NCBI GenBank assembly: GCA_038199185.1
Contig: JBBPZE010000060.1
Coordinates: forward strand, 5,066-69,065
DNA length: 64,000 nt
Direction of reading: 5' to 3'
From: Solirubrobacterales bacterium
GTDB lineage: Bacteria > Actinomycetota > Thermoleophilia > Solirubrobacterales > Solirubrobacteraceae
The position numbers and the translations under genes are program-made. A model generated the notes under the pieces. The model did no database searches, had not been told where the DNA came from, and saw only the letters and a list, made by a program, of their open reading frames with translations. This document shows, piece after piece, positions 1-16,093 of this stretch (position 1 is the stretch's first letter; every line of letters starts with the position of its first letter).

Positions 1-869
1 CGTTGCTCACCGGTGAGCGAGTCGACGTAGCCATGCACCAGTGCTGCGCGATCCTCTGGCAGCGGTCGGGCGACCCTTTCGAGCTCGTCGGGATCGAGCA
101 CTGCCACCAACGACCCGAGCGTCACCCGTTGCCCCGCCGCACGCAGCGTGCGCGTCGCCTGTGCGACGTAGCGCTGCGCCTGCCGAAGGTAGTGCGGCTC
201 GGTGTAGGTCTCGCCCGCCAGGGCCTTGTCGGCCAGCTCGGAGTCCGACCCGTGGGCGAAGGGGTTGTAGGAGTGCGGGCCGTCCGGCGTCCACAATGCG
301 AAGTCGCGCCCGTTTCGCTGCGCCGCGGCGTGCAGCTCGGAGACCAGCAGGGGGTCGCCCTTCGGATCGACACAGACGACCGCCTGGCCCGCGTCGATCG
401 CACGCGACAGCATCCAGGCCTGCGTCACGGTCTTGCCGGCTCCGGTAGCGCCGAGTACCAGTGTGTGCGTCACGCGCGCGCAGGTGGGCACGCGCACAGG
501 TTTGTGCTGCTGGTCGTGTCCGACGAGCATTCCGGCTGAGGTCACGGAGCGGCCGACGTTTCGCCGGGCGACGAGGCGGCGGGCAAACGCCAGCGGCCCG
601 GGCCGCGCCGCGAGTTGGGCAGCGACGTCGCCTCCGGCACGTCGGCGGTCGTGGGTCGAGCGCCACGCGATCGCCGAGCAGACCAGGACCGCGGCCGTGA
701 CGGTCGCACCCGCGATTGGGCTCAGCAGCCAGATCGGACTGACGGCGCCGAGGAAAGACAGCGGCCAGGTCCAGCGCACACCGAGATAGGGAAGTACGAA
801 TCCGAGGGTCCCCGCGACCAGAATGACCGCCGAGATCTTCACCAGCAGCGCCAGGTTGTCCGGCTCCAT
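1..869 (-). CDS. Type IV coupling protein (TraD/TraG/VirD4/TrwB-like conjugative DNA-transfer ATPase). The C-terminus runs off the left window edge. It is not in the supplied ORF track.
   Basis: Hand translation of the third minus frame from ATG at 869 gives MEPDNLALLVKISAVILVAGTLGFVLPYLGVRWTWPLSFLGAVSPIWLLSPIAGATVTAAVLVCSAIAW, which forms two hydrophobic helices. Further on are THTLVLGATGAGKT (Walker A, nt 429-452), AVVCVDPKGD and SYNPF. There is no stop down to nt 1. Listed ORFs 3..539(+) and 7..885(-) are Arg/Pro-rich off-frame artefacts. Confidence 0.8.
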   Translation of the reverse strand, partial: MEPDNLALLVKISAVILVAGTLGFVLPYLGVRWTWPLSFLGAVSPIWLLSPIAGATVTAAVLVCSAIAWRSTHDRRRAGGDVAAQLAARPGPLAFARRLVARRNVGRSVTSAGMLVGHDQQHKPVRVPTCARVTHTLVLGATGAGKTVTQAWMLSRAIDAGQAVVCVDPKGDPLLVSELHAAAQRNGRDFALWTPDGPHSYNPFAHGSDSELADKALAGETYTEPHYLRQAQRYVAQATRTLRAAGQRVTLGSLVAVLDPDELERVARPLPEDRAALVHGYVDSLTGEQ

Positions 870-912
870 CAGCTCGGCGAGCCATCCCCTCGGCGGGCCC
901 CCGGTCGCATGA

Positions 913-1659
913 TCAGGATGCTTTCTCATAAGGACCTCCGTTTGATGATTGGCGTCCGGCCCACGACAGCGGGCGGACCTCTATGACGTCCTCCGCCCGC
1001 ACGGCACGCATGGCCCGTTCGAGCGCCCGCGCCGGTGCTGGCGCGGCGTAGTAGCGGACGCGCGCGATGTGCCGGGCTCGCGCCCACGCTCGGCAGATCG
1101 CCTCCAGCCGCCGCGGCGACTTGACCGACAGCTCGACCTCGACTGCGATCGGCGCCCGCTCAGCCCCGCACTGCAGGACGAGGTCGGGGCGATGCAGCCG
1201 GTCGGACTGCCCGACGCGGACGCTGGCAATCAGCCGGCCGGACTCGAGCTCGGCGGCCCGTAGCTCGCGCTCGCTCCACACGGGTTGCCCGCTCGCTCCG
1301 AGCGCCGCGGCCAGTCGAGCGCAGGCCTGCCAATGAGCGAACTCGCCGACGCTCACCCGGCACGGACCAAGCTGCTCGAGTCCGGTCCAACGCAGCCCGC
1401 GCCGAGTGGCGACGTACAGCCCCGGCTCGCCGTGCAGCAGCCGCACCTGCTCGAGCAGCCCCGCCTCCACGGCCACCGCGAGGCGTCGGTAGCCGACCGT
1501 CCGGCCAAGGCCAAAGCGCACCATGACGTCCTCCGCTCCCGCAGCCCCGAGCCGCGCCACCCAGGCGACCATCTCGCGATCGCGCGCCGTCACCACTGGA
1601 GTGCCCCGCGAACCCTTCGCACCACCCTGCAGGGCGCGGATCGCCACTACCTCCCGCAC
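913..1659 (-). CDS. Replication-relaxation family protein: N-terminal winged-helix plus a PD-(D/E)xK-like C-terminal core, of the type found on Gram-positive conjugative plasmids/ICEs.
   Basis: 248-aa ORF. It contains TARDREMVAWVARLG...GYRRLAVAVEAGLL (wHTH-like) and HRPDLVL...IAVEVELSVK (D...E.K). It lies directly upstream of, and on the same strand as, the coupling protein. Family assigned from recalled pattern only. Confidence 0.6.
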   Translation of the reverse strand: MREVVAIRALQGGAKGSRGTPVVTARDREMVAWVARLGAAGAEDVMVRFGLGRTVGYRRLAVAVEAGLLEQVRLLHGEPGLYVATRRGLRWTGLEQLGPCRVSVGEFAHWQACARLAAALGASGQPVWSERELRAAELESGRLIASVRVGQSDRLHRPDLVLQCGAERAPIAVEVELSVKSPRRLEAICRAWARARHIARVRYYAAPAPARALERAMRAVRAEDVIEVRPLSWAGRQSSNGGPYEKAS

Positions 1660-1728
1660 TTCCTCCCTAGATGATGCTGTTTGGCTCCCTGAAATGCTTC
1701 TGCTTCCTACCGGTATCTCGACTGCTGA

Positions 1729-1861
1729 GGTCCACCGCCGTACCCACGATCACGATCTCTGCCTGACCGACCGCTGACCCCGTCACACACATCGTGTAGG
1801 GGCGGGGTCAGCGGTCGGGAGGGCCCACCCACGCCGGCATCCCGGGGGACGGCGGTGGACC
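1729..1861. repeat. Nested perfect inverted repeats in the divergent intergenic region. This is a candidate oriT or operator.
   Basis: Outer arms are ggtccaccgccgt (1729-1741) and acggcggtggacc (1849-1861). Inner arms are ccgaccgctgaccccg (1767-1782) and cggggtcagcggtcgg (1803-1818), with a 20-nt loop that itself contains acac/gtgt. The motif cacgatc occurs three times (tandem at about 1745-1757, again at about 1874-1880). Confidence 0.6.
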
Positions 1862-1983
1862 GTCAATCCACAGCACGATCCATAGGTCAGCCACCGACAG
1901 GCTTCGCGTGAACTTCGCCAGCCCAGACCCGTCGGCGCCAGCAACCGCCATGCAGTCCCCGGACATGCGATCTTTGCGCACGC

Positions 1984-4659
1984 ATGACGCTGCGAGAGAT
2001 CGAAGAGCGCGTTGCGGCGATCGAGCCGCGTCCAGGAGTCGAGTACCTGGGGGACCTACTGCTCGCCTACGGATTACCGCGGGCCTCGGTCTCTCGGCTC
2101 ATGTCGGGCACGTACGACAAGGCCGACACCGCCGACGAGCGGCTTTGGAAGGACAAGGTCTACTTTCGCTACATCGAGGGCCCCGACGAAGCCCTCTACG
2201 AGGCCATCGATGGCGCGCGCGGCGACGAGCGCGTGATCAAGCATCGGCCGAGGTTCCTGATCGTCAAGAACGATGGACGTCTGCTGGCCCGGGATCAAAA
2301 GGACGGCCAGACGCGCGACATCGAGGTCGGAGAACTCGCGTCGAACGTGACCTTCTTCGGCGCCTGGGCGGGGTTCGAGAAGACCCAGCTCGAGAACCTC
2401 AACTACGCCGATCGCAAGGCCGCGGAGAGGATGGCCAAGCTCTACGACGAGGTCATCAGGCACAACAGCATCGAGACCGATGACGCCATCCACGACCTGA
2501 ACGTCTTCTTCTCGCGACTCCTGTTCTGCTTCTTCGCTGAGGACACCGGGGTGTTCGAAACTGGTTCGTTCACCAACGCGCTCGGCTCCTACACACGGGA
2601 GTCGGGCGAGGACACACACAGCTTCCTCGACCAACTCTTCGAGGTGCTCGACACGGAACCCGCCGAACGCGCAGGACTCCCCGAGCACCTGGGCGCCTTC
2701 GGCTACGTCAACGGCAACCTCTTCGAGCGCCGCTGTCCGGCACCGCGTTTCTCGGCCAAAGCGCGCGCGGTCATCCTCGAGTGTGGGACGCTCGACTGGT
2801 CACAGATCAACCCCGACATCTTCGGGTCGATGATCCAAGCGGTCGTACATCCGGGCCAGCGGGCCGGCCTCGGGATGCATTACACGTCGGTCGAGAACAT
2901 CATGAAGGTGATCCGCCCGCTGTTCCTCGACGAGCTCGAGGCGTCCTTCGAGGCGGCCGACACGGTCAAGAAACTCGATGCGCTGCTGGCGCGGATCGCG
3001 GCGATCCAGGTCTTCGACCCGGCATCAGGCTCGGGGAACTTCCTGGTGATCGCGTACAAGGAGCTGCGCCGGCTCGAGCACCAGATCCTGCAGCGGACGA
3101 CCGAGCTCGAACCGCACCGCGCGGCGCTGTTCACCGACTCCCGGCTGCGGCTGGACAACTTCTTCGGAATCGAGATCGACGACTTCGCCCACGAGATTGC
3201 GATCCTCTCCCTTTGGTTGGCCAAGCACCAGATGAACGTCGCCTTCGAAGAGCTGTTCGGTGCGGAGATCCCGCTGATCCCGCTGCGGGAGGCGGGCAAC
3301 GTCGTGTGCGCGAACGCGACGCGGATCGAATGGACGGAGGTCTGTGATCCGGTCGGAGAGACCTATGTGCTGGGGAACCCGCCGTATGCCGGTTCGTCGA
3401 TGCAGAGCCCAGAGCAGAAAGCGGAGTTCGTGGACTACTTCGGCACCGCCAGGTATCCAAAGAACCTCGATTACGTCTCCCTCTGGTTCTTCAAGGGGGC
3501 CGAGTTCGTGAACCAAGGGCCCGACGTAGCGGTGGCGTTCGTCGCTACGAACTCGATCAGCCAGGGAGATCATGTAGGGCTGATGTGGCCGCGCGTGTTC
3601 GCGTCGGGCGGACAGATCTCCTTCGCGCACCAGTCATTCCGCTGGTCGAACCAGGCCCGGAGAAACGCCGGAGTGACTTGCGTGATCGTCGGACTGATCG
3701 CCAGAGGGCAACCCGTCAAGAACGTGCTCTACCTCGACGGCGTCCGCCGTGTCGTCCACGAGATCAGCCCGTACCTGACCGTGGGTGCGCGCGAGCTGAT
3801 CGTCCATTCCCGCCGACTTCCTCCGCCGGGGCTACCGCCGATGGTGTTCGGGAGCAAGCCCACCGACGGAGGGTTTCTGAACATGCTGCGTCAGGAGCGC
3901 GACGAACTCCTCGCCGCGGCGCCAGACGCCGCCCGTTTCATCCGGCGGTACGTGGGCGCTGCTGAATTGCTGAACGGTAAGGAACGCTATTGCTTGTGGA
4001 TCGAGGATCACGAAGCGGACGTTGCGGCAGGCATCCCATTGATCAGACGTCGGCTCGATCAGGTCGCCGCGGCGCGAAGGCGCGGGTCGACGACTGCCCA
4101 GGCCATGGCCGACAGGCCCTACCGCTTCCTGCAGCGAGCGCACAAGGCGACGAGCGCGATCGTTGTGCCCGAGGTCACCTCCGAGCGGCGCGACTACGTG
4201 CCACTCGACTTTGTCGGCCCCGAAACCGTCATCTCGAACAAGGCGTTCGCGATCTATGACGGTGACCCATGGCTCTTCGGCCTACTTCATTCGCGCATGC
4301 ACATGACCTGGGTCAGGGCGGTAGGCGGACGCATGAAGACAGACATCAGCTATTCCTCGATCCTCGTTTACAACACGTTCCCCGTGCCCGAGATCCCAGA
4401 GGATCAGCGCGCAACACTCACCCACGCGGCCGTGGCAGTGCTTGGGGCCCGCGAGCAGTTCTCTGGTCAGACCCTCGCCGAGCTCTACGACCCGGACAAG
4501 ATGCCCCCGGTCCTGCGCTCGGCCCATCGAAATCTCGACGACGCCGTCGACGCGCTCTTCCGCTCCAAGCCGTTCGAGTCCGACGCTGCACGGCTTGAGC
4601 TCCTGTTCGAAATGTACGAGTCGGCAACCCGCGACGAGCCGGCGACCGCCCATGCCTGA
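1984..4659 (+). CDS. MmeI-family (type IIG/IIL-like) N6-adenine DNA methyltransferase with target-recognition domain. The MmeI N-terminal D-x12-ExK nuclease motif was not found.
   Basis: 891 aa. Motifs read: RLLFCFFAEDTGVF, LDWSQINPDIFGSMIQ, GMHYTSVENIMKVIRPLFLDEL, VFDPASGSGNFLV (SAM motif I), LGNPPYAGS (motif IV), VATNSISQGDHV, LVYNTFPVP, LAELYDPDKMP. These are colinear with MmeI as I recall it. Confidence 0.85.
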   Translation: MTLREIEERVAAIEPRPGVEYLGDLLLAYGLPRASVSRLMSGTYDKADTADERLWKDKVYFRYIEGPDEALYEAIDGARGDERVIKHRPRFLIVKNDGRLLARDQKDGQTRDIEVGELASNVTFFGAWAGFEKTQLENLNYADRKAAERMAKLYDEVIRHNSIETDDAIHDLNVFFSRLLFCFFAEDTGVFETGSFTNALGSYTRESGEDTHSFLDQLFEVLDTEPAERAGLPEHLGAFGYVNGNLFERRCPAPRFSAKARAVILECGTLDWSQINPDIFGSMIQAVVHPGQRAGLGMHYTSVENIMKVIRPLFLDELEASFEAADTVKKLDALLARIAAIQVFDPASGSGNFLVIAYKELRRLEHQILQRTTELEPHRAALFTDSRLRLDNFFGIEIDDFAHEIAILSLWLAKHQMNVAFEELFGAEIPLIPLREAGNVVCANATRIEWTEVCDPVGETYVLGNPPYAGSSMQSPEQKAEFVDYFGTARYPKNLDYVSLWFFKGAEFVNQGPDVAVAFVATNSISQGDHVGLMWPRVFASGGQISFAHQSFRWSNQARRNAGVTCVIVGLIARGQPVKNVLYLDGVRRVVHEISPYLTVGARELIVHSRRLPPPGLPPMVFGSKPTDGGFLNMLRQERDELLAAAPDAARFIRRYVGAAELLNGKERYCLWIEDHEADVAAGIPLIRRRLDQVAAARRRGSTTAQAMADRPYRFLQRAHKATSAIVVPEVTSERRDYVPLDFVGPETVISNKAFAIYDGDPWLFGLLHSRMHMTWVRAVGGRMKTDISYSSILVYNTFPVPEIPEDQRATLTHAAVAVLGAREQFSGQTLAELYDPDKMPPVLRSAHRNLDDAVDALFRSKPFESDAARLELLFEMYESATRDEPATAHA

Positions 4660-6568
4660 CCTCGTCCGTGTCGAGTACGGCCAGGACGGTCGCAGCACGG
4701 CTACCGACGCGCTCGGCATGCGCGAGATGCAGACGCGCGCGTTCGCTGCACGTGACAGCCAATACCTGCTGATCAAGGCGCCGCCGGCCTCGGGCAAGTC
4801 GCGCGCGCTGATGTTCATCGCGCTCGACAAGCTGTTCCACCAAGAGCTGAAGAAGGTGATCGTCGCCGTCCCCGAACGCTCGATCGGCGCCTCGTTTGCT
4901 CCTACGCCGCTCACCGAGTCCGGCTTCTTTGCCAACTGGGAGATCTCGGACGAGAACAACCTGTGCACGCCCGGCGGGGACGCGAGCAAGTTCGCGGCGG
5001 TGCAGCGCTTCCTCGCAGGGCCCGACGCGGTGCTCGTCTGCACCCACGCGACGCTCCGCTTCGCCCACGACGCGATCGACGAGCGCCTGCTCGACGACAC
5101 CGTTCTGGCCATCGACGAGTTCCACCACGTCTCGGCGTCGGACGACAGCCGGCTCGGCGAGCTGCTGCGGTCGGTGATCCGCAACACCTCGGCGCACGTC
5201 GTCGCGATGACCGGCTCCTACTTCCGCGGCGACGCCGTTCCTGTCCTCGACGCCGAAGACGAGGCCCGCTTCACCAAGGTCACCTACAACTACTACGACC
5301 AGCTCAACGGCTACACGCACATGCGGTCGTTGGGGATCGGCTACCACTTCTATCAGGGCCGCTACACCGAGGCGATCGGGGAGATCCTCGACACCGACAA
5401 GAAGACGATCCTCCACATCCCGAGCGTCCAGTCGGGCGAGTCGACAAAGGACAAGCTGCGCGAGGTCGACACGATCCTCGACTCGATCGGCGTGTACGAC
5501 GGTCAGGACCCAACGACCGGCGTTATCCGCGTCCGTCGACCAGACGGCAAGCTGCTCAAGGTCGCCGACCTGGTCAACGACGACCCGGCCCAACGGCCAA
5601 AGATCGTCGAGTACCTGCGCACGATGCGCGAGCTCGACGACATGGACCTCATCATCGCGCTCGGGATGGCCAAGGAAGGCTTTGACTGGCCCTGGTGCGA
5701 GCACGCGCTCACCGTGGGCTACCGCGGCTCGTTGACGGAGATCATCCAGATCATCGGGCGCTGTACGCGTGACTCACCCAACAAGACGCACTCGCAGTTC
5801 ACGAACCTCATCGCCCAGCCAGACGCGGGCGACGAGGCGGTCAAGGTCGCCGTCAACAACATGCTCAAGGCCGTCACCGCCTCGTTGCTGATGGAGCAGG
5901 TGATGGCGCCAAACTTCAACTTCAAGACCAAGCGCTCGTCCGATGACATCTCAGGGCTCGGCGAGCTCAAGATCGGCGGCTTCAAGGAGCCGTCAAGCGC
6001 CCGCGTCACTCAGATCGTCGAGTCTGACCTCAACGACCTCAAGGCCCAGATCCTGCAGGACCCGACGATGCTCAAGGCGATGCCAGGGAACATCGACCCT
6101 GAAGTGATGAACAAGGTCCTGATCCCTCAGATCATCCGCGCGCGCTACCCGGACATCTCTGAGGCCGAGGTCGAGGAGGTCCGCCAGCACGTGGTCACGG
6201 ACTCAGTCGTCAAGAACGGCGAGGTCAAGGACGTCGGTGACAAGCGATTCGTTCTGATGGCGGGACGCTTCGTCAACATCGACGACCTGCACATCGACCT
6301 GATTGACACGGTCAATCCCTTCCAGAAGGCCTTCGAGGTGCTGTCGAAGTCGGTGACCAAGCAGGTGCTGAGGCTGATCCAGGACGCGATCGAGACGACG
6401 CGTGTCGACATGAGCGAAGACGAGGCGCTCCTGCTATGGCCGAAGCTTCAGGCGTTCGTGAGAACGAACGGAGATCGGCCTGACGTTCGCTCGGCTGATC
6501 CTCTCGAGCAACGGCTGGCCGGAGCCCTGCTGCTGCTTCAGAAGCAGAGGCGCGAGCAGAACCTGTGA
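4652..6568 (+). CDS. SF2 DEAD/DEAH-type helicase/translocase (restriction-subunit-like) with a ~260-aa helical C-terminal extension.
   Basis: Motif I IKAPPASGKSRAL, motif II AIDEFHH, motif III AMTGSYFRGD, motif VI QIIGRCTRD. The ATG at 4652 overlaps the methyltransferase stop (ATGCCTGA). The track start at 4442 lies inside the upstream gene. Confidence 0.85.
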   Translation: MPDLVRVEYGQDGRSTATDALGMREMQTRAFAARDSQYLLIKAPPASGKSRALMFIALDKLFHQELKKVIVAVPERSIGASFAPTPLTESGFFANWEISDENNLCTPGGDASKFAAVQRFLAGPDAVLVCTHATLRFAHDAIDERLLDDTVLAIDEFHHVSASDDSRLGELLRSVIRNTSAHVVAMTGSYFRGDAVPVLDAEDEARFTKVTYNYYDQLNGYTHMRSLGIGYHFYQGRYTEAIGEILDTDKKTILHIPSVQSGESTKDKLREVDTILDSIGVYDGQDPTTGVIRVRRPDGKLLKVADLVNDDPAQRPKIVEYLRTMRELDDMDLIIALGMAKEGFDWPWCEHALTVGYRGSLTEIIQIIGRCTRDSPNKTHSQFTNLIAQPDAGDEAVKVAVNNMLKAVTASLLMEQVMAPNFNFKTKRSSDDISGLGELKIGGFKEPSSARVTQIVESDLNDLKAQILQDPTMLKAMPGNIDPEVMNKVLIPQIIRARYPDISEAEVEEVRQHVVTDSVVKNGEVKDVGDKRFVLMAGRFVNIDDLHIDLIDTVNPFQKAFEVLSKSVTKQVLRLIQDAIETTRVDMSEDEALLLWPKLQAFVRTNGDRPDVRSADPLEQRLAGALLLLQKQRREQNL

Positions 6569-7737
6569 CGATCGACGCCGACACGCTCAGGGCGATGATC
6601 GCTGCGGACGAGCTCGGTCTGCTGGAGCTTCCGGTGAAGGTGCGGGCGATCACCACCGACGAGCGCCTGGCGGCGAACTTCGACGAGATCACCGAGTTCG
6701 TGCGTGCGCACGGCCGCGAGCCGGCGCCAGGCAGCTCCGACGTGGCCGAGATCAAGCTCCACGCCCGTCTCCAGGCGCTACGCGACCACGACGAGGCGCG
6801 CGAGGCGCTCGCCGACCGCGACGACTTCTCCCTGTTGGTCGAGCCCGAGGCGCCCGCCTCCGTTGCGCAGGCCGCGGCTGACGACCCCCTCGGGCTGCTC
6901 GATGCCGGAGCCGAAGACGTCTTCACTCTGCGCCACGTGCCGAAGGCACCCGCGGCACAGCCCGAGCGGGTGGCGCAGCGCAAGCCCTGCGCGGACTTCG
7001 AGCTCTTCGAGCCCTTGTTCAAGCGCTGTCATGTCGAGCTGCGCGCGGGCACCCGGAAGGTCGTCCGATTTCGCAACGAGCAGGAGATCCGAGAGAACGC
7101 GTTCTACGTGCACCGCGGCGTGCTGACCTATGTCGCAGAAGAGGGCGAACGTCGGATCGAGCACGGGCGCCCCAATGCTCGGCTGCGCTGCATCTTCGAG
7201 AACGGCACCGAGGCCGACCTGCTCCTGCGCTCCTTCGCCAGCCAGCTCTACCGCTTCGGCAGGCAGGTGACCGATCCGGACGAGGTGACCAACGACGCGG
7301 TGGAGATGCAGCTCGACGGACGGACCGGCTACGTCTACGTACTTCGCTCGCTGTCCGAGGACCAAGCGGTCCAGGCGATCCCCGACCTATACAAGATCGG
7401 GTTCACGACGTCGGACGTCGCGAAGCGGACGAGCGGTGCCCGCCGGCACGCGACGTTCCTGGGCGCAGCCGTCGAGGAGGTCTCCCTCTATGAGATGCCG
7501 GCAGCGATGGCTCGTGGGGTGGAGACCCTGCTGCACCGCTTCTTCGCGCTGGCGGGGATCGACGCGTGGTTCGAGCACGCCGGCGTCTCAACGGCAGAGG
7601 TCAGGGAGTGGTTCTCGGTTCCCCTGGGCGCGATCGATCAGGCGATCGACCTCCTGCAGGCCGAATCAATCGAGAACTTCGAGTACGACCCGGAGACGCG
7701 GACCATCCAGCTCAGCGGAGCTCGCGGCGGATCCTGA
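6565..7737 (+). CDS. T5orf172 / MUG113-type GIY-YIG-superfamily domain protein (putative nuclease) with an uncharacterised ~250-aa N-terminal region.
   Basis: The C-terminus reads GYVYVLRSLSEDQAVQAIPDLYKIGFTTSDVAKRTS...LLHRFF...REWFSVP. The GTG start overlaps the helicase stop (GTGA, 6565-6568). Confidence 0.7.
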   Translation: MTIDADTLRAMIAADELGLLELPVKVRAITTDERLAANFDEITEFVRAHGREPAPGSSDVAEIKLHARLQALRDHDEAREALADRDDFSLLVEPEAPASVAQAAADDPLGLLDAGAEDVFTLRHVPKAPAAQPERVAQRKPCADFELFEPLFKRCHVELRAGTRKVVRFRNEQEIRENAFYVHRGVLTYVAEEGERRIEHGRPNARLRCIFENGTEADLLLRSFASQLYRFGRQVTDPDEVTNDAVEMQLDGRTGYVYVLRSLSEDQAVQAIPDLYKIGFTTSDVAKRTSGARRHATFLGAAVEEVSLYEMPAAMARGVETLLHRFFALAGIDAWFEHAGVSTAEVREWFSVPLGAIDQAIDLLQAESIENFEYDPETRTIQLSGARGGS

Positions 7738-7757
7738 TCGCTGATCGGCTGCCCGGA

Positions 7758-7784
7758 CTCGGTATCCGAGGGGCCCGATACGAG
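7758..7784 (+). terminator. Hairpin cluster just after the T5orf172 gene stop. This is a possible operon boundary.
   Basis: ctcgg-tat-ccgag (7758-7770), then the gggccc palindrome and an imperfect outer pairing ctcggtatc/gatacgag. There is no U-tract. Confidence 0.3.
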
Positions 7785-8015
7785 CGTGGCGTCCACTTGG
7801 GCGCCCAGATAGGAGCGCGTCGGCATGCGCGCTTTGCATGGCAAGCGGAAGTAGGCGATCGAGGCGGCCTGGAGCGCCACCCCCGCCTGGCCACCCCGAC
7901 TGAACGGGCAAGCCGGCTCCGCGGCGCGCGACCGAGGCACCACGGCAACGACGTCGTCGCCGTCCGCGATCCTTGCCGGGTGGCCCAGGATCGCCCGCAG
8001 ATCGTCATCCCCGGC

Positions 8016-9854
8016 ATGGTTCAGCTGAAGAGCGGGCTGATCGTGCCGAGCTACCTGGCGAGCCTCGGCCAGGAGCGGGCAGGTCCAGGGCTTCATCTCC
8101 CGCCCGCACGCATTCCCGACGACTCGCTGCTCGTGGTCGGCCAGCCACCAAGTGATCTCGACGCCTTCTTCGTAGCTCCTGACCCGGAAGCGCTCGGACA
8201 GCCGAACCCGAGCCTAGAAGCCATCTGTCGAACGCTGAGCGTGGTGCCCGTCGAGCCAGCCATGTTCGGTCTGGCCGGTATCGCCGCGGCGACGTGGCAT
8301 GCCGGCACCGACCAGGCCAAGCACCTCAAGCTGGCCGAGGAGATCTTCGTCGGGCGCCCGGTTCTGGATCTGCTCCGGGAGTTCGTCAAGGAGGACCGCA
8401 ACCACGTCCTTTTCAACGAGCAGCACCTGACAATCCTGACCCGTCTACTGCTCATCCACGGTGCCGAGGGTGATGCCAAGGTCGACATGACTGGTGAGCA
8501 GGTCAATGCGCTGCTGACGGCGATGCTCGCGGTCGGCGGCTTGACTGCCAGACACGCCGACCCGGAGGCCAGCGGCGAGAAGCCGATGGGGTGGGTCCCG
8601 TGGATGGTGCGTTCGGGCCTCTACTTCGATCGATCGAACTTGGGCAGCGATCAGGCACGCGCTCGTGCGTTGTTCGTCGATGTGGCGGCGGGCGCCGATC
8701 CGTCAGGAGCGCACTGGTGCGACGTCGGCGCCTGGGCGGCCGAGGATCTGGCGCCGGTCGAGCGCCAGTTCGGCTACGGCTTCTCCATGGGCGCGTTTTC
8801 GAAGGCTCTCTTCCCCGACGTCGAGACGACGGACCGCTTCGTGGGGATCGTCGCCGATGGCCTGCTCGCCGACAACATGGGCGCCGCCCAGGTCGAGCGG
8901 CTGGTGAGCGCGAGCAGCTCGACGCGCCAGGAGTACATCGATGCATTCGCCGAAAACGACGACGTCGACCACCTTCTTTGGGACCGGACGCCGTTCGAGC
9001 GCAGGCCGTTCTTCCGTGTCGGTGACGGGCGGCTCCTGTTGCTCAGCCCTCGCTTCCTCCACAGCTGGATGGGCGAGGGGATCTACTACCGCCTGCTCGA
9101 CGCCGCCATGAGCCGCCCCGATCCTCGACGGCCAGAGCGCAAGGCCACCCTGAGGTTCACCCAGTTCCAGGGTGAACTCATGGAGAGCTATCTCCAGCGG
9201 CTCACCGAGCGGTCCCATGCCGAACAGCTCCGCGCCGGCATCGTCGACATCAACGGCGAGCAGCAGTATGTCGGCGAGCAGGGCAGCGAACGGAAGAGCC
9301 CGGACCTTACCCTGGGATTTGCAACGGACCTCGTGGCGATCGAGATCACCGGCGGACGACCGTCTCGCCGCACCCGGGTTCTGTCAGACCCTTCGCTGAT
9401 CGAGAAGGAACTTGACGACCGTGTGATCGGCAAGCTGCAAGAGCTCGACAGGGCGCTCGTCGATGTCCTTGACGGCACTGCCCGCGTCCCCGATCTCCGG
9501 CTGAATCTTGTCGAGCGTGTGTGGCCCGTCTTGATCGTCCCGGCGACGATCGTGCAGAGCGACCACGTCTGGGGCTACATCGAGGGAAAGGCACCAGATC
9601 TCTTCACGCACCACCCGGCGCTGCAGCCCCCGACGCTGTTCTCCATCGAAGACTTCGAACGTGCGTTGGCCGCCGTGGAGGCTGGTGCCGGGCTGCACGC
9701 GGTTCTCGGCACTCGCCTGGGTTCCGTGTATCGGCGGATGCCGCCCTCTCATTTCTTCGAAAGACACTTCCAGAGCGATTCGCGGCCGGCCTACCTCGAA
9801 GAACAGCTGGCGCTGGTCGCGGACGAGGCCAAGGCGGCACTGTCGCTGCTCTGA
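8016..9854 (+). CDS. Hypothetical 612-aa protein with no family recognised. The start is uncertain: ATG 8016, or downstream GTG/ATG up to about 8262.
   Basis: Long ORF with coding-like composition from about 8016 onward. The upstream part of the track ORF (7566-8015) is Arg-rich and overlaps the preceding gene. A weak PD-(D/E)xK-like string KSPDLTLGFATDLVAIEITGG lies at about nt 9296-9355. Confidence 0.6.
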   Translation: MVQLKSGLIVPSYLASLGQERAGPGLHLPPARIPDDSLLVVGQPPSDLDAFFVAPDPEALGQPNPSLEAICRTLSVVPVEPAMFGLAGIAAATWHAGTDQAKHLKLAEEIFVGRPVLDLLREFVKEDRNHVLFNEQHLTILTRLLLIHGAEGDAKVDMTGEQVNALLTAMLAVGGLTARHADPEASGEKPMGWVPWMVRSGLYFDRSNLGSDQARARALFVDVAAGADPSGAHWCDVGAWAAEDLAPVERQFGYGFSMGAFSKALFPDVETTDRFVGIVADGLLADNMGAAQVERLVSASSSTRQEYIDAFAENDDVDHLLWDRTPFERRPFFRVGDGRLLLLSPRFLHSWMGEGIYYRLLDAAMSRPDPRRPERKATLRFTQFQGELMESYLQRLTERSHAEQLRAGIVDINGEQQYVGEQGSERKSPDLTLGFATDLVAIEITGGRPSRRTRVLSDPSLIEKELDDRVIGKLQELDRALVDVLDGTARVPDLRLNLVERVWPVLIVPATIVQSDHVWGYIEGKAPDLFTHHPALQPPTLFSIEDFERALAAVEAGAGLHAVLGTRLGSVYRRMPPSHFFERHFQSDSRPAYLEEQLALVADEAKAALSLL

Positions 9855-10292
9855 ACGTGTCACCGGCACGCGAGCGGTCGCCAGTCGATGCAGCCGGGGC
9901 AGCTCGGACGGCCTCCGATTCCGCCACCGCGAACGCCCGTGGCGGATCCCGGATGTTGAGCCCATGAGCGAAGGCTCGGTACGCAGGATCCAGCGACGCG
10001 TGTGGTCAGGCACGCCGTTGCGGAGGTTGCGCGCATAGGAGGTGCTGCTGTTCGCGGCCAGCGAGACCGGGCTCACGCAGATCGACGACGTGATTGCTCT
10101 CGTCGCGGCTCGACCCAGGGTGGCTTCCGGCGGCGCTCGCGCAGTTCGGGCTGCCCTCGCGAGGTGACATCCTGGAGGTGCCCCCAGGGCAAGGCCACGT
10201 CGAGCGAAACACAGGGGCCTACCTCTCATCACCAGCGCAACGACGACGCGACCATGAGCCGCAACCCGGCCAATCCCGAAGGAGAGAGCCCC

Positions 10293-13200
10293 ATGACCGG
10301 CTTGGGCGAGTACGCAGCGGGCAAGAGCATCGGCTGGGGCATCAAGTTGATGACCTACGGGGTCCGGGAGCTCCTCAAGCGCGACGCGCTCGGCCGCCTG
10401 TTGCTAATGCTGCATTCCGAGTTCGGCGAGCGCACACAGCTCGGGCGAGACGTGTTCGACAGCTGGCGCGCACGGCCGGACCTGGAGGCGGCGCTCTGCG
10501 CCGTGCTCGCCGGGCAGGCGCCGGAAGCCGCGTTCAAGAGTTCACTGACCGCGCTGATCTCCGAGCGTCTCGTTCGCACAGACCCGCCGGACCGGGCGGC
10601 ACTGGCGGCCGAGATCGCAGACGCGGTGTTCGAGGCCGCTCCAGCCGCCGCCGACGGCGGCAACCAAGCCCTGGCCATGATGCTCGTCCGCATCGAGCAG
10701 GGGCAGGGCAGCCTCATGGAAGCCATCGAGAAGGCCTCGCTGTCGGGGCCGCCGGCTCCCACCGACGGGGGCCCGGCCGACGGCCCGAACCTCGCCCAGG
10801 CCCTGGTTGTCGGGCCGGTGAAGGCGGTCGGGGCCGTCGACGCGGTCGCTGATGCCGAACGACTTGCCGAGGGAGGCGACCAGCTCGCCGCAGGGCGCGC
10901 GCTGATCGATGTTTCCCGTCGCCTCGCCGAGCGCGACCTGACCTATGCTGCCGAGAACCTCCGTGAGCGCGCCGCCGCCCACCTCGCCGCCGGCGGCGCG
11001 ATCGACGACGCCGCCGCCGTGCTGATGGAGATCGCGTTGGCCCGCATCGACCGGGGCGCATCACGCTCCGGCGCGATGCTCGTCCACGCGGTACGTGATC
11101 TTCTCGATCCGAGTGAGGTCTGGCTGGCGGACGGGATCGCGGCCCGGGCTGGCTGGGCCGAACAGGGCGAGGCGGCTGTCGAGGCACTTTCCGCAGCCGC
11201 GCTGGCCGCAACGTCCGCTGGCCGCGACGACTCCACGTACTGGGTCGCTGCGCATGTCGAGCTCCTTGCGGTCGACGAGCGCTGGCCGGATGTCGTCGAG
11301 GCCGCAGGCGCCGTGGCCGACGCCGACCCAGAGGAAGGGCCGGTCCTCGCTGTCATCCTCGACGTGTTCGACGCTCGCGAGGCGATCGACGGTGCCGATT
11401 CGACCGAGAAACGCTGGTTGGGTCTGTTGCGCTGGGCCGACGCGGAAGCGCCGCCGCGGGCACAGGCCGTCGTCTGGCAGCGCCGGGGCACCGTCCTTGC
11501 TCGGCGGGAGAAGGTGGCGCAGGCGTCCGACGCTTTCCGGCGCGCGATGGCGGCGTGGGCTGGCATCCCGGGCCATGAGGAGCAGGCAGCTGACGCGTTC
11601 TTCTGCCTCCAGGCGACCGCCATCATCAACGCCAAGCCGATTCCCGACATGGAGTTGCGAGCCCTCGCCTGGACCGTTCGCGGTGCCGCCGGGACGCCCG
11701 TAGCCGTCACCGACCGGCTCGACCGCGACGCGATGGCCCGCCGCTTGAACAAGCAGCTTCCGGACGCCCGGGTCGGCTACATGGAGGCCTACCTGATCAA
11801 CCGCAGGGTCGGGAGCCTTCAGGGGTGCCTGGAGACTTCGGAGCGCTTGGCCGAGCTCTACCAGCACGCGGGCGAGCTCGGGGAGGCGCTGACCTTTTTC
11901 ATCCGTGCCGGCAAGGGCAAGGAGGCCGCCCAGGTCGCCGCCCAGATGCCGGGCGATGCGGTCACCGCACGGCTCAGCGTCAGCGGCCCCCGGTGGGAGC
12001 GCGCGGCGGCCCTGCATGTGATCGCGGAGTGCGGCCGGGGCCTGCCGTCGGAGTTCGTCGCCTTGATGACGCAGAGCCTGCTCGACGAGGCCGCGGGTGA
12101 GCCTGACGCGATGGTGGCGCCCCAGCCGGTGTCGGCGGCGCGGCGCGCGCTGGCCACGGTGTTCCTGTCGGTGCCAGAGGAGATGCGGGACGAGGTTTTC
12201 GGACGGCTCGTCGAGTACCTGACCTGCGGTCTGTTTGATCTCATGCACCACAGCGCCCGCGCACTGGTCCTGGCGACGCGCGCCGGAATCGTTGACGCCC
12301 GGCCTCAGCTGGTTGCCCGTTTCATCGAGGATCCGTACAACAGCTCGATCAGTTGGGCGTGGCTGGCCCGCGAGGCCGAGAAGCACGAGTCGGTTCGCGA
12401 CGCACTGCTCGCCGCGGCCCGCGACGGCAAGGACGCGATGCTCGAACCCCTTGCTGCGGCGGGCCTCATCGGCAACGGCGAGCTGCAGGACCGCGTCGAT
12501 GCGGTGACGATTGCGACGTCGCAGGTGGTGACTGTCGAGCGCACGATCGACGAGGAGACCGGCAAGACGAACATCTCGGCGGGCTTCGGGTTCTCGTTCG
12601 AGGGCCCCGCGGTCGTCGCCCGAGGCGCGAGCGCTGAGCCGCGCGCGGCATTGGTCGCCCGAATGCTCGAAGTCCTCACCAGCACCGAAGAGCCGGAGCT
12701 CAATCGTTCGGGCGCTGCGGGCGCACTGTTCAACATCGCCCCGTCGCTGGAGCTGCAGCAGGCCCAGGAAGTCGCTGCGGCCATCACGCCGCTTGCGCTC
12801 GGCGAGTACGAGCGCTCGCAGCTGGACGTCGAGCAGAACCACCCGCTGTCGCGAGTACAGATCAGCTTCGGGGCGCCCAACCAGCTGCGGGTCTCGGCGA
12901 TCGGAACGCTCGCCCAGCTCGTGTCCAATCACTCCGAGCTCGACGTCGAGCCTCTGCGGGAGGCGGTCACCGGCGCTGTTCGCACGAACGTGGGCTCGGT
13001 GGTCGGCGCCGCGTTCGACGCCGCCGCCCGGCTGCCGCTGGTCGACTTCGGCATCGACCCCGAGGACGGGTTCTTCCACCCGGACTCGGCCGTGCGGATC
13101 CACGCGCTCGTCGCGTGGGCGGCACGCAGCGAGGGACTGCCCGCGGACGGGTTGGTCGAGCGACTCGCCACCGACGCCGACATCAATGTGCGGCTGCAGC

Positions 13201-13337
13201 TGACCGCCATGGCCGGGCACGCCGGGGAGGCTGGCGCGGCGCTGCTCGAACGTCTCGCCCGGGGCGATGCCGATGCGTTCGTGCGTGCCAAGTCGGTGTT
13301 CTGGCTGCGCCAAGGCGCAGATCACGCGGCCGAATGA
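10293..13337 (+). CDS. Large (1014-aa) Ala/Leu-rich alpha-helical repeat protein (TPR/HEAT-like). Function unknown.
   Basis: The ATG at 10293 is preceded by gaaggagag (SD) 8 nt upstream. C-terminal HEAT-like units are DSAVRIHALVAWAARS, DADINVRLQLTAMAGH and DADAFVRAKSVFWL. The track start at 10002 adds an Arg-rich, non-coding-like leader. Confidence 0.7.
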   Translation: MTGLGEYAAGKSIGWGIKLMTYGVRELLKRDALGRLLLMLHSEFGERTQLGRDVFDSWRARPDLEAALCAVLAGQAPEAAFKSSLTALISERLVRTDPPDRAALAAEIADAVFEAAPAAADGGNQALAMMLVRIEQGQGSLMEAIEKASLSGPPAPTDGGPADGPNLAQALVVGPVKAVGAVDAVADAERLAEGGDQLAAGRALIDVSRRLAERDLTYAAENLRERAAAHLAAGGAIDDAAAVLMEIALARIDRGASRSGAMLVHAVRDLLDPSEVWLADGIAARAGWAEQGEAAVEALSAAALAATSAGRDDSTYWVAAHVELLAVDERWPDVVEAAGAVADADPEEGPVLAVILDVFDAREAIDGADSTEKRWLGLLRWADAEAPPRAQAVVWQRRGTVLARREKVAQASDAFRRAMAAWAGIPGHEEQAADAFFCLQATAIINAKPIPDMELRALAWTVRGAAGTPVAVTDRLDRDAMARRLNKQLPDARVGYMEAYLINRRVGSLQGCLETSERLAELYQHAGELGEALTFFIRAGKGKEAAQVAAQMPGDAVTARLSVSGPRWERAAALHVIAECGRGLPSEFVALMTQSLLDEAAGEPDAMVAPQPVSAARRALATVFLSVPEEMRDEVFGRLVEYLTCGLFDLMHHSARALVLATRAGIVDARPQLVARFIEDPYNSSISWAWLAREAEKHESVRDALLAAARDGKDAMLEPLAAAGLIGNGELQDRVDAVTIATSQVVTVERTIDEETGKTNISAGFGFSFEGPAVVARGASAEPRAALVARMLEVLTSTEEPELNRSGAAGALFNIAPSLELQQAQEVAAAITPLALGEYERSQLDVEQNHPLSRVQISFGAPNQLRVSAIGTLAQLVSNHSELDVEPLREAVTGAVRTNVGSVVGAAFDAAARLPLVDFGIDPEDGFFHPDSAVRIHALVAWAARSEGLPADGLVERLATDADINVRLQLTAMAGHAGEAGAALLERLARGDADAFVRAKSVFWLRQGADHAAE

Positions 13338-14569
13338 GCACGCCCCTGATCCAGACGCGGCTGGAAGCCGGCGAGACGGTCACCGGAATGTTCGCCCCGG
13401 CCGGAGCCGACTTCGCCACCCCCGGCGTCCTCACTTGGTCGGCCCCCGGCGGGGCGCTGCTCGAACTCGCCGGCCGCGACGACCCTTGGCCGAGCGACAC
13501 CGAGACCGGGTTCACCGTGCACGGAACCCCGCACGAGGGCGACCTGGTGACGCTGTTGGACTGCGGGATCCGTCGCTGGAGGTTCCACGACACCGTCTCG
13601 CATCTCTCCAGCTCGACGTTTGCCATCGGCGAACACACCGACAACGCCGAGCCCTGGGCCAAAGCCAACTTCCGTCCCGTGCTGCTGCATCAGTGGCTGC
13701 CGGAGACCGGATTGTCGCTGGACCGCGGCGAGAACGAAGACGACCACGACTCCTTCGCTCTGAACTACAACCGGCCGTCGAGGCGGGTCATCGAGTTCGA
13801 TGACGACGAAGTCGCGATCTGGGCCGGCGCCGATTACACGTGGGCCTACTCGCCGGATTGGGGCATCAAGACCACGCTGACCTTCGGCGTTACGCCGGAG
13901 GACGCGCTTTCGATGAACGGCCATTACGCGCGGTTCGGCCATCCGCTGCTGGGCTTCTGCGTGTTCGCCGCCGATGAGGCCGACGATCTCCTGCTGGAGT
14001 CCTACTTCAACCCGTCAGACAGACGCCGCGTGGCCGTCCTTCGCGCAGGGCGCCGCCCTTCGCGGCGGCAGTGGAGACCCCGAGACGAACGCTTTCTGTT
14101 CCGTGCCGAGCACGTCGCCGACGTTCCGGGAACGATCCGCCGCTGGGTCGACGTGTGGCATGCCAGCTCGCCGGCTCTCGGCCTATACATGGAGACGATC
14201 GCTGAGAGCACCTACTCAGCGCCCAGGTTCCTGACGCTCTACACCGCTGCCGAGACGTATTACAGGCGGCTGCACGCCCACCGCGGGCCGTGGAGCCCGC
14301 GCGCCTTCGCCGAGCTGGCCGACCTCGATCCCGCGCTGACGGGCGCGACGCAAAACGCCGTTGCGACGATCGGCCAGCTGCGGGCCTATCATGCGCACGG
14401 GAACGCGATCGGCCCGGGCAACGGCGACGACGAGCACCTGCTCACATTCGACGCCACCCGCCGGCTTCAGGCACTTTTTCAGGTGTGCGTCATGCGTGAC
14501 ATCGGCATCGACACCGCCACGATCGAAGAGCGCATGAAACTTCACTACCGGGCGTGGCCGCTTCCCTGA
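13334..14569 (+). CDS. ApeA-like protein: beta-rich N-terminal domain plus a C-terminal HEPN-like domain (putative RNase effector).
   Basis: The ATG at 13334 overlaps the upstream stop (ATGA). The N-terminus reads GMFAPAGADFATPGVLTWSAPGGALLELAG. An R-x4-H motif occurs in LRAYHAHGN (nt 14381-14398) and a second in RRLHAH. The assignment comes from recalled ApeA_NTD/HEPN_Apea patterns, not from a search. Confidence 0.5.
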   Translation: MSTPLIQTRLEAGETVTGMFAPAGADFATPGVLTWSAPGGALLELAGRDDPWPSDTETGFTVHGTPHEGDLVTLLDCGIRRWRFHDTVSHLSSSTFAIGEHTDNAEPWAKANFRPVLLHQWLPETGLSLDRGENEDDHDSFALNYNRPSRRVIEFDDDEVAIWAGADYTWAYSPDWGIKTTLTFGVTPEDALSMNGHYARFGHPLLGFCVFAADEADDLLLESYFNPSDRRRVAVLRAGRRPSRRQWRPRDERFLFRAEHVADVPGTIRRWVDVWHASSPALGLYMETIAESTYSAPRFLTLYTAAETYYRRLHAHRGPWSPRAFAELADLDPALTGATQNAVATIGQLRAYHAHGNAIGPGNGDDEHLLTFDATRRLQALFQVCVMRDIGIDTATIEERMKLHYRAWPLP

Positions 14570-14904
14570 GAATCGAGCACGGTCGGTGGGATGGCGAGGT
14601 GGACGCCTTCTGCGGCGTCGGGCCGGTGCCCAGCCGGTGTCGATGGCGGCCACGCATAGGGCAGAGCACGGACCGCCGGAAGTCTCCGGTCATGTCTTCC
14701 TCCTGAAGCCCATAGCCCGACGATGCGTGTGGCGCTTCGGCTTGGGCCCTATGTGCTCGCTCCCGCTTTGGATAAGCAGCACCGATCGGCGCGACGCGAA
14801 CGGTGTTGACGACATCGACGGCCGCGACGGGAGACGCCAGTCTGGTACTCGCCGCTGGTACTCGAGGCGTATCGTGGCCTCCGATGGGCAACCCCACAAA
14901 CACC

Positions 14905-14930
14905 GAAGGCCCCGCAATAGCAGGGCCTTC
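14905..14930 (-). terminator. Stem-loop immediately 3' of tRNA-Asp.
   Basis: gaaggccc (14905-14912) pairs with gggccttc (14923-14930), leaving a 10-nt loop. Confidence 0.4.
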
Positions 14931-14936
14931 GTGGGA

Positions 14937-15010
14937 CGGGAGCGACGGGACTCGAACCCGCGACCTCCGGCGTGACAGGCCGGCGCTCTAACCGACTGAG
15001 CTACGCCCCC
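14937..15010 (-). tRNA. tRNA-Asp (anticodon GUC).
   Basis: The reverse complement is GGGGGCGTAGCTCAGTCGGTTAGAGCGCCGGCCTGTCACGCCGGAGGTCGCGGGTTCGAGTCCCGTCGCTCCCG. It folds as a cloverleaf with anticodon loop CTGTCAC. Confidence 0.95.
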
Positions 15011-15118
15011 GTAGGCGACGGCGCACAGTAAAGCAACATCACCGCGCGCAACTCCCCAGGAGCGCCAGGGTTCCAGGAGCCGGAAACGGCACCCGACCTC
15101 TATCAAGGGAGCAGGACC

Positions 15119-16093
15119 ATGAAGGCCACACGCAGAGCGCCGGCAGCGGTCATGACCGCACTGGCAGGACTGGCGGCCACGGCCGCCATCGCCACCGCCG
15201 CGACGATCACCGGCACGCCGGCCGCCGAACGTCTCGTGGGCACGCCTAACGTGGACAACATCGACGCGCTGGCCGGTGACGACCGCGTGCTCGCCAGGGC
15301 CGGCGATGACGTGGTCACGCTCGGCGCGGGCGACGACCGCGCCTTCGGAGGCCTCGGGATCGACACGATCTCAGGCGACGCGGGCGACGACACCATCGCG
15401 GGCGGCGCAGGCAATGACGTGCTCGCCGGCGGTCCCGGCCACGACCGGCTGTTCGGCGGAGCCGGAGACGACACGATCAAGGGCCTGCAGGGCGGCGACC
15501 TCATCGTGGGCAACGCGGGCAACGACACGCTCGAGGGCGACGTGCCCGGTGCAGGCGACCTCGTGAGCCGCGACCGGATCTTCGGGGGCCGGGGCGACGA
15601 CACCGTCATCGGTGGCGACGGCCGTGACCGGCTGCACGGTGGTAGTGGCAACGACACCATGCGAGGCAACGCCGGACGCGACTTCATGTCCGGCGGCGCC
15701 GGCAACGACACGCAGTACGGGGGCGCCGGCAACGACCGCATCTTCGCCAACCAGGGCGTCGACACGACCATGGGCGGCGACGGCAACGACGACCTGTGGG
15801 CGCTGTCGCAGAAGGACGTCGCCCCGGGACCCGGGATCGACACGGTCGGCGACACGCTGATCGGGGAGGCGGGCAATGACACCTTCCACACCCGTGACGG
15901 TGAGATCGACCGCGTCGACTGCGGCGCCGGCAACGACGTCGCGCTGCTCGACAACGTCGACGTGATCATCGACGCGACCACCGAGAACCCCAACGGCTCG
16001 TGCGAGACGGTCATCCGCCGGGCGCCCTCGCCGGCCGACGCGCAGACCGAGGACGCGACGCAGACCCAGCCCGGCGACACCGCGCACGCCTGA
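15119..16093 (+). CDS. Secreted calcium-binding RTX/hemolysin-type repeat protein.
   Basis: Signal-like N-terminus MKATRRAPAAVMTALAGLAATAAIATA, followed by many GGxGxD nonapeptides (GGAGNDVLAGGPGHDRLFGGAGDDT and others). Confidence 0.85.
   Translation: MKATRRAPAAVMTALAGLAATAAIATAATITGTPAAERLVGTPNVDNIDALAGDDRVLARAGDDVVTLGAGDDRAFGGLGIDTISGDAGDDTIAGGAGNDVLAGGPGHDRLFGGAGDDTIKGLQGGDLIVGNAGNDTLEGDVPGAGDLVSRDRIFGGRGDDTVIGGDGRDRLHGGSGNDTMRGNAGRDFMSGGAGNDTQYGGAGNDRIFANQGVDTTMGGDGNDDLWALSQKDVAPGPGIDTVGDTLIGEAGNDTFHTRDGEIDRVDCGAGNDVALLDNVDVIIDATTENPNGSCETVIRRAPSPADAQTEDATQTQPGDTAHA

Follow-up and report, generated by a model that had tools for sequence, protein, structure and literature searches.

Does a very large repeat protein control the candidate RNA nuclease encoded directly behind it, or do two independent defence genes share one transcription unit? 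The question is raised by a pair of genes in a stretch of 64,000 nucleotides from a Solirubrobacterales bacterium (GenBank assembly GCA_038199185.1, contig JBBPZE010000060.1, positions 5,066 to 69,065), which is called the window below. Gene A (10293..13337, plus strand) is an open reading frame (ORF) of 1014 amino acids (aa) that encodes an N-terminal head and a long alpha-solenoid and has no nucleoside triphosphatase (NTPase) domain. Gene B (13334..14569, plus strand) encodes an ApeA-like HEPN protein of 411 aa, which belongs to the PDC-S58 type of PADLOC. An earlier note, made from the sequence alone, had placed B under the control of A. The evidence presented here speaks against this subordination: A is found without B at six of eight loci and B without A at 11 of 14, relatives of A carry effector heads in cis, and B is intact at a locus (L015) from which most of A has been deleted. 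The explanation that we favour as probable is that A and B are two autonomous defence genes, co-transcribed within one island, and that they do not form an obligate sensor-effector pair.

Co-occurrence of A and B across homologous loci

The A-centred survey comprised eight A-family loci with gene calls or DNA, six of them with DNA. Genome loci were reached with a 13-sequence alignment of A, which led to four loci (L008 to L011), all in metagenome-assembled genomes (MAGs) of Solirubrobacterales; L009 ends inside its A gene and was excluded from the pairing count. B lies downstream of A at two of the eight loci, the window and L001. In L001, A is 59% identical to the A of the window and B follows directly, split by a frameshift; the locus also carries an AspBHI/Mrr-type restriction endonuclease, and A and B are the sole genes that it has in common with the window. 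The closest relative of A (P0002, 64% identity) has no B and is followed by two small minus-strand genes, L002 and L003 have unrelated neighbours and no B, and tblastn found no B-like sequence in L008, L010 and L011. Among the neighbours of A at the last three loci are a weak EACC1 match (L008), a DUF5677 protein together with a Shedu SduA_C protein (L010) and a weak DUF4435 match (L011). Apart from B, no flanking gene was common to the A loci (six loci with DNA). DUF5677 genes recur beside both families, at 9847-12832 of L010 next to A, where one accompanies the Shedu SduA_C gene, and at 9227-10404 of L017 near B.

Seen from B, A or a remnant of A lies upstream at three (L001, L012 and L015) of the 14 loci whose upstream sequence extends over about 650 bp or more, and these three are one lineage, sister to the window. 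B stands without A at 11 loci (L004-7, L016-19 and L022-24), which amount to about eight independent contexts, and no flanking gene recurs across independent B lineages. Besides L004-7, L016 and L017, eight metagenomic B loci were recovered, and none of the five with at least 700 bp of upstream DNA has A-family sequence there. In L004, L005 and L006 the B homologue is part of a conjugative element and begins 4 nt behind a DUF4238 gene, in L007 and L016 it lies in integrase-bearing islands, and in L017 (Conexibacter stalactiti) it follows a 357-nt gap near DUF4926, DUF5677 and TraG/TrwC genes. The conjugative element encodes TraG/TrwC, SSB and ArdC, and the DUF4238 gene (with the B homologue at 8950-11233 of L004, likewise in L005 and L006) is another tight upstream partner for the ApeA-like family. 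In L017, a 64-aa DUF4926 ORF overlaps the stop codon of the Conexibacter B homologue.

Conserved co-occurrence of A and B across homologues thus fails. At loci that allow a judgement, A and B are adjacent only within a single narrow clade, namely the window and the L001/L012/L015 lineage. The earlier note had itself named a lack of synteny among homologues as grounds for abandoning its proposal, and synteny is largely lacking, the pairing being found in one clade only. In its strict form the proposal holds that A and B are an obligate two-gene system, in which the solenoid senses and then activates or scaffolds a HEPN RNase that has been split off in trans and replaces a fused head. The finding that A and B are all that the window and L001 share, amid flanks that differ, speaks for such a system. 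A missing partner at six A loci and at 11 B loci (about eight independent contexts) speaks against it, and so does the lack of a conserved neighbour at six loci with DNA for the class of A proteins that has the same head and solenoid as the window's A (40 representatives). We consider an obligate pair unlikely.

The surroundings of the homologues fit two autonomous defence genes: A sits beside DUF5677 and Shedu genes in L010 and beside the AspBHI/Mrr-type enzyme in L001, and B homologues are carried by conjugative and integrative elements.

Gene decay within the A-B clade

The A-B clade consists of two lineages about 60% apart, one represented by the window and the other by the group of L001, L012, L014 and L015. 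In L012, A is reduced to a remnant (1639-2421) by an in-frame internal deletion that joins residues 1-216 to the last ~45, and both genes carry frameshifts. L014 retains a 5'-truncated B. In L015, an intact 414-aa B with the motif RSYHAH is preceded by a mini-ORF (454-657) that is composed of the first 8 and the last ~27 residues of A, ~35 in all; this B shares 86% identity with the B of L012. Survivors inside the clade therefore include A without B (P0002) and B without a full A (L015), showing that either gene can be maintained in the absence of its partner. Intactness of B after the deletion of A, and of A where B is absent, is a further point against an obligate pair.

The state of B in the sister lineage is an observation in its own right. 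The gene is frameshifted at different positions in L001 (5025-6259) and L012 (2423-3663) and truncated at its 5' end in L014 (1934-2662). Such lesions could reflect decay of a costly toxin or errors of assembly, which are indistinguishable here.

Gene order and translational coupling at the locus also resemble those of toxin-antitoxin operons, and A might then be an upstream antitoxin or inhibitor that silences the HEPN RNase B. This is extremely unlikely, as L015 encodes a full-length B with its catalytic motif behind an A cut to about 35 residues, which refutes A as an essential antitoxin, and as most B homologues have no A. An antitoxin of 1014 aa with nuclease- or NADase-headed relatives would moreover be implausible.

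The A-B junction

The stop codon of A and the start codon of B overlap in the window as ATGA (13334..13337, plus strand), as the earlier note had read from the sequence. In L001, L012 and L015 a spacer of 1 nt separates the stop codon of A, or of what remains of it, from the ATG of B, and the in-frame remnants of L012 and L015 have kept the start of A as well as this stop. The overlap is expected to make translation of B dependent on translation of the upstream ORF, and the remnants of L012 and L015 would fit such a need. A and B are presumably co-transcribed, with translation of B coupled to that of A. This is a coupling of expression and no evidence of functional dependence.

Several points weigh against the view that A and B are autonomous. 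The tight junction has been kept as ATGA in the window and as a 1-nt spacer in L001, L012 and L015, across lineages about 60% apart in protein sequence, and the flanks differ among these four loci; A and B have therefore moved or persisted together as a cassette. No enzymatic activity can be recognised in the head of the window's A, which makes an effector in trans, such as B, conceivable. The synteny sample of eight loci for A and about 16 for B is small, many of its contigs are short metagenomic fragments, and the contig of P0002 was judged from gene calls only. Finally, all functional statements made here rest on analogy, and we know of no A-family member or PDC-S58-type protein that has been studied experimentally. 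The ATGA overlap and the stop/start junction kept in L001, L012 and L015 are also arguments for an obligate pair. Short of such a pair, it is possible that A modulates B where both occur.

Gene A: start, fold and domain limits

The ATG at 10293 is favoured as the start of A over an upstream GTG at 10002 because homologues begin at the same residue in the alignment. It is preceded by the Shine-Dalgarno-like sequence gaaggagag (10278..10286, plus strand), whose GGAG ends 8 nt before the ATG, and the stop codon occupies 13335-13337. The protein is rich in Ala (19.8%) and Leu (10.7%), followed by Gly (8.0%), Arg (8.0%), Glu (7.8%) and Asp (6.4%). Its AlphaFold2 model (predicted local distance difference test, pLDDT, 77) is a continuous alpha-solenoid, helical throughout except for one small hairpin. 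Sequence and model together bear out the earlier description of A as a helical, Ala/Leu-rich ORF of 1014 aa with a ribosome-binding site of its own.

Three parts can be told apart, all on the plus strand. A helical head of ~140 aa (aa 1-140, 10293..10712), termed the N-module here, is a separable module. A linker of low confidence (about aa 141-172, 10713..10808; pLDDT <50 over residues 121-172) connects it to the alpha-solenoid (about aa 173-1014, 10809..13334), which according to DSSP on the model is TPR-like in its first part and HEAT/ARM-like in its second. HEAT-like repeat units were placed at the C-terminus (about aa 880-1010, 12930..13322) from the family profile and from the HEAT_2 matches of relatives. 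The earlier note had A end in such units, and this is confirmed: profile positions 867-994 of the A family match designed alphaRep HEAT-like proteins in a search of the PDB (E 7e-41), and some relatives match Pfam HEAT_2 at their C-termini. Foldseek with the A model returned generic HEAT/ARM solenoids (CAND1, PP2A A subunit, importins) at a template modelling (TM) score of ~0.2.

Single-sequence searches of A against NCBIfam, PADLOC and the PDB gave no match, and Pfam gave sub-threshold TPR matches alone (TPR_2, TPR_12 and TPR_1, all under their cutoffs). No NB-ARC, AAA, NACHT or P-loop domain was found with Pfam, PADLOC and NCBIfam, in agreement with the earlier statement that A lacks an NTPase. 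Neither a SIR2 head (Pfam and PADLOC) nor a DUF4062 head (Pfam) was detected in the A of the window.

The string GEYAAGKS (aa 5-12, nt 10305-10328) fits the Walker-A pattern. We regard the match as one of chance, because homologues do not conserve its Lys and Ser and because it lies inside a predicted helix at the extreme N-terminus of the AlphaFold2 model.

Taken together, these features make A a large solenoid of the HEAT/TPR-like kind that lacks an NTPase and plausibly acts as a sensor, and on this point the earlier proposal is a sound one.

A family of solenoids with exchanged heads

A word-indexed search with A returned only four relatives and made the protein look like an orphan. This impression was overturned by an exhaustive HMMER profile scan of 1.84 billion cluster representatives, which recovered 455 members of the family with E<=1e-3, 133 of them with E<=1e-30; most members are ~1000 aa long. 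We re-mapped the 153 A-family proteins that were listed onto the profile locally and classified them by architecture. Forty have the N-module and solenoid of the window, and another 40 carry the solenoid, from profile position ~150 onwards, behind an unrelated head of 110-310 aa; the remainder have a short N-terminus only (21), an N-module without the solenoid (11) or are fragments (41). The junction between alternative heads and solenoid falls at profile positions of about 145-190, matching the low-confidence linker of the window's A. No Pfam, NCBIfam or PADLOC model covers the A family.

Several of the alternative heads are of enzymatic type. A cluster of 14 has DUF4062 heads: the four members scanned (P0065, P0067, P0071 and P0085) all match Pfam DUF4062, P0085 above the cutoff, and the head of P0065 matches that of PADLOC PDC-S60 (E 3.5e-20). 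DUF4365 heads form a cluster of four (P0090 and P0117 with 107.7 and 85.6 bits in Pfam), for which the PADLOC label of the same domain is Argonaute-associated restriction endonuclease (REase). Mrr_cat-like heads form a cluster of nine (P0110, P0123; 21.7 bits for P0123 against a cutoff of 21), and P0070 has a SIR2_2 head (43.8 bits). A further cluster of five shares an undescribed head of ~155-200 aa, mostly ~190 aa. The head of P0145, which is 307 aa long, was inspected by sequence only; its glycine-rich hydrophobic stretch AGIGLGFVVASSTFLGPLGGIIAGIGGNLIS at residues ~10-45 hints at a membrane-active head in the family.

The A family is thus modular, with a constant solenoid of ~850 aa behind exchanged heads. 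Because relatives of A carry enzymatic heads of their own (SIR2, DUF4062, DUF4365, Mrr_cat), the effector in this family is normally supplied in cis. Enzymatic death heads that are swapped on a constant repeat chassis, and a head that is common to two chassis, are the signature of modular immune sensors. The window's A is best described as a known head-plus-solenoid design in a new form, with a head that was previously undescribed.

It is the N-module that links A to a second chassis. Five of the proteins that have the N-module without the solenoid (P0144, P0148, P0152, P0155 and P0161) run on into NB-ARC, and two of these five continue into TPR_10/TPR_12 arrays. The N-module alignment has no invariant polar residues; nearly invariant are G10, R35, W58 and G74, together with several Leu and Ala. 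The module matched no Pfam family, a profile search of the PDB found no relative, and a word-indexed search with the N-module alignment gave no matches. That the head of A thus shows no conserved residues of catalytic type, and hence no evident means of killing by A alone, again favours an obligate pair with B. Yet no second copy of the N-module was found on B or on any neighbour in the window and 17 related loci, which leaves such a pair without a homotypic adaptor link. A link of A to B or a neighbour of the EAD type was ruled out for the loci examined on the same grounds.

These results also bear on the prosaic reading that A is a housekeeping or structural scaffold which has nothing to do with immunity and happens to lie beside a toxin gene. 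Foldseek returned generic eukaryotic scaffolds only and no defence-database model matches A, as would be the case for such a protein. A scaffold role is nonetheless very unlikely, given that the same solenoid is fused to SIR2, DUF4062, DUF4365 and Mrr_cat heads within the family, that the head of A is common to NB-ARC/TPR proteins, and that the family shows a patchy distribution, variable and defence-rich neighbourhoods and frequent decay.

A bolder proposal is that the N-module is an undescribed immune head, common to NTPase-less solenoids and to NB-ARC/TPR proteins, which serves as a death-fold-like adaptor or as an effector that forms pores or oligomerises, and that the solenoid of the window is wired in trans to the ApeA-like RNase. 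We hold this combination to be speculative and quite improbable. If it were true, B would be the first ApeA-type effector gated by a separate protein sensor.

With respect to mobility, tblastn of A against PLSDB plasmids and phage records gave no match, and P0065 matched plasmid genes over its DUF4062 head only.

The ApeA-like protein encoded by B

The start codon of B is backed by the family alignment. Its AlphaFold2 model (pLDDT 85, predicted TM score 0.83) places beta strands in residues 16-237 and helices in residues 264-407, which upholds the earlier division of the protein into a beta-rich N-terminal and a helical C-terminal half. The first half contains an ApeA_NTD1 domain (aa 17-197, 13382..13924, plus strand; Pfam PF18862, 32.1 bits against a cutoff of 25.5, E 1.1e-7). 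The second contains a helical HEPN_Apea-like domain (aa 264-407, 14123..14554, plus strand), which was placed from the helices of the model and from family matches; the HEPN_Apea score of B itself is 15.9 bits over residues 341-394, under the cutoff of 24.4. A search of 5.8 billion proteins yielded a family of 19 proteins including that of the window, of which 16 sequences were aligned. ApeA_NTD1 is found in 16 of these 16 and HEPN_Apea in 13 of 16 at E<=0.01 (best 9.9e-7). In PADLOC, B matches two PDC-S58 models (E 1.1e-17 over aa 25-314) and Cas13-ApeA (E 8.5e-7 over aa 265-316), and it does not match the model named ApeA.

The candidate HEPN R-x4-H catalytic motif is R350-A-Y-H-A-H355 (14381..14398, plus strand), located where helix 340-355 of the model ends. 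Conservation in the 16-member alignment reaches at least 90% at R350, Y352, H353, A354 and H355, and likewise in the SAPRFLTLYTAAE block in the long helix before RAYHAH. The earlier note had pointed to R-x4-H motifs at two places, and RAYHAH is the one that stands. RRLHAH (residues 311-316) lies in a variable segment that is not conserved in the family and was rejected as a second HEPN motif. Four R-x4-H occurrences in B compare with 1.5 expected by shuffling (P about 0.05), a weak excess, and the argument is therefore carried by the conservation of R350 and H355.

ApeA-NTD1 was described as a region of ~300 aa, composed largely of beta strands and fused to an Apea HEPN domain (Anantharaman et al. 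2013, PMC3710099), and B fits this description. The ApeA_NTD1 match above cutoff, the PDC-S58 match at 1e-17 and the R-x4-H motif conserved in the family all support the ApeA-like nature that was first suspected for B. Judged by its sequence, B is an ApeA-like protein of the PDC-S58 type and no close homologue of the characterised ApeA proteins. No significantly similar structure was found for B, by sequence or with the B family profile in the PDB or with Foldseek on the model, and tblastn of B against PLSDB plasmids gave no match.

Comparison with known defence systems

The ApeA proteins of Escherichia coli are described as predominantly helical and as consisting of N-terminal, Mid and split-HEPN domains, with the HEPN domain of Ec2ApeA reaching residue 583; they assemble into doughnut-shaped oligomers of HEPN dimers, and ApeA acts as a single-protein tRNA anticodon nuclease that is triggered by 5'-phosphorylated deoxydinucleotides in a pocket of its own (bioRxiv 10.64898/2026.01.26.701840). 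B shares with ApeA proteins (Ec1-4ApeA, Thr1ApeA), a single-gene HEPN system of abortive infection, the C-terminal Apea-type HEPN domain with a conserved R-x4-H, the occurrence as a stand-alone gene in mobile elements and defence islands and, at the level of the family, membership in ApeA_NTD1 and HEPN_Apea. It differs from the predominantly helical E. coli proteins in its length of 411 aa and its beta-rich N-terminal half, and it matches PDC-S58 and Cas13-ApeA only, with a sub-cutoff HEPN_Apea score of its own. The oligomer, the dinucleotide pocket and tRNA cleavage are known for ApeA, whereas B is known here from its sequence and a model. That ApeA proteins are autonomous and activated by a ligand is a further point against an obligate dependence of B on A. 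The best database match of B, PDC-S58, is a PADLOC candidate single-gene system; it is a predicted candidate, and the match leaves out the C-terminal 100 aa of B.

Among the systems that resemble A, DSR2 joins SIR2 to an alpha-solenoid by which the phage tail tube is bound and sensed (PMC11850899, PMC10981675). Like A, it combines an N-terminal effector head with a long alpha-solenoid and does without an NTPase, and the A relative P0070 even has a SIR2 head. Unlike DSR2, the A of the window has no SIR2, there was no PADLOC DSR match, and the family profile did not match DSR2 in the PDB. The likeness appears to be one of design, homology being unsupported by the PADLOC and PDB profile searches.

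In the systems Swarozyc, Evangelion, Avs2 and Vulcan, DUF4062 (NIR) has recently been shown by experiment to be a TIR-like NADase effector (bioRxiv 10.64898/2026.05.01.722283, 10.64898/2026.09.04.749371). Vulcan is a single protein of DUF4062 and HEAT repeats that is triggered by a small phage protein (bioRxiv 10.64898/2026.09.04.749371). Vulcan and PDC-S60 share with the A family the layout of an effector head and HEAT-type repeats, and at least four A-family members have DUF4062 heads. The match of PDC-S60 to P0065 covers the head only (profile positions 3-174 of 906), and the solenoids are not detectably related. Vulcan, compared here by its description only, further differs from the window's A in that the head of A is another one and looks non-enzymatic. 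STAND or NLR-like proteins (NB-ARC plus TPR, with a logic of the Avs type) resemble A in carrying the N-module in the N-terminal effector position and in having repeat sensors, and differ from it in that A has no NB-ARC or P-loop.

Proposed mode of action and significance

If A and B are autonomous, they would act in parallel. If A works as DSR2 and Vulcan do, a phage-derived protein would be bound by its ~850-aa solenoid, and this would activate the N-terminal head through a conformational change or oligomerisation. The head of the window's A would be an effector of a non-enzymatic kind, acting for instance by membrane disruption or by oligomerisation, and less likely an adaptor. B, if it behaves as ApeA does, would dimerise through its HEPN domains to form a composite R350/H355 site and be activated through its own ApeA_NTD1 N-terminal region; activated B might then cleave tRNA or another RNA and cause abortive infection. 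In this lineage, A and B would have been joined into one transcription unit inside an island flanked by tRNA-Asp.

Head swapping on one solenoid is the signature that has repeatedly revealed antiphage sensors (Avs, DSR2, Vulcan), and we regard it as the more interesting outcome that A uncovers a large unannotated family of head-swapping solenoids and a new head. The family comprises at least 455 clusters at 50% identity and would contribute an NTPase-less chassis for sensors, found in soil Actinomycetota, as well as a candidate effector or adaptor head that NLR-like STAND proteins have in common with it. The locus is in addition a natural test case: intact pairs, A-only variants and B-only variants are available for comparing autonomy of a short, beta-rich ApeA-like RNase with control by a separate sensor.

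Genomic setting of the locus

The locus lies in a typical tRNA-flanked defence island, with restriction-modification, helicase-like and T5orf172 genes upstream. All four upstream genes are on the plus strand: a complete MmeI-family type IIL restriction-modification gene (1984-4659), a DEAD/ResIII-like helicase ORF (4442-6568), a gene for a T5orf172/MUG113 protein (6565-7737) that overlaps the helicase ORF in a GTGA, and a gene for a 762-aa protein (7566-9854) with a weak GapS1 match only. These genes (1984-9854) may be a multi-gene defence cluster of their own, and a gap of 440 bp separates the gene of the 762-aa protein from A. The GC content is 0.64-0.66 over 2-10 kb, compared with 0.70-0.75 elsewhere in the window.

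A scan for sigma-70 promoters over 9700-15300 gave no sites, which is uninformative for an actinobacterial-type genome of 70% GC. Just after B, the terminator scan found a 12-bp GC-rich hairpin (14904-14931), and ARAGORN placed a tRNA-Asp(GTC) gene at 14934..15011 on the minus strand, which is the right bound of the island. No att-type direct repeat of the tRNA-Asp end was found within 1-16000. Beyond the tRNA lie genes for an RTX-repeat protein, a P450 and a glycosyltransferase. The first of these (15119-16093, plus strand) encodes a protein of 324 aa with seven matches to RTX calcium-binding nonapeptide repeats (HemolysinCabind, E 1.5e-46), and the RTX repeats are also seen as a family of 36-nt DNA repeats at 15360-15767.

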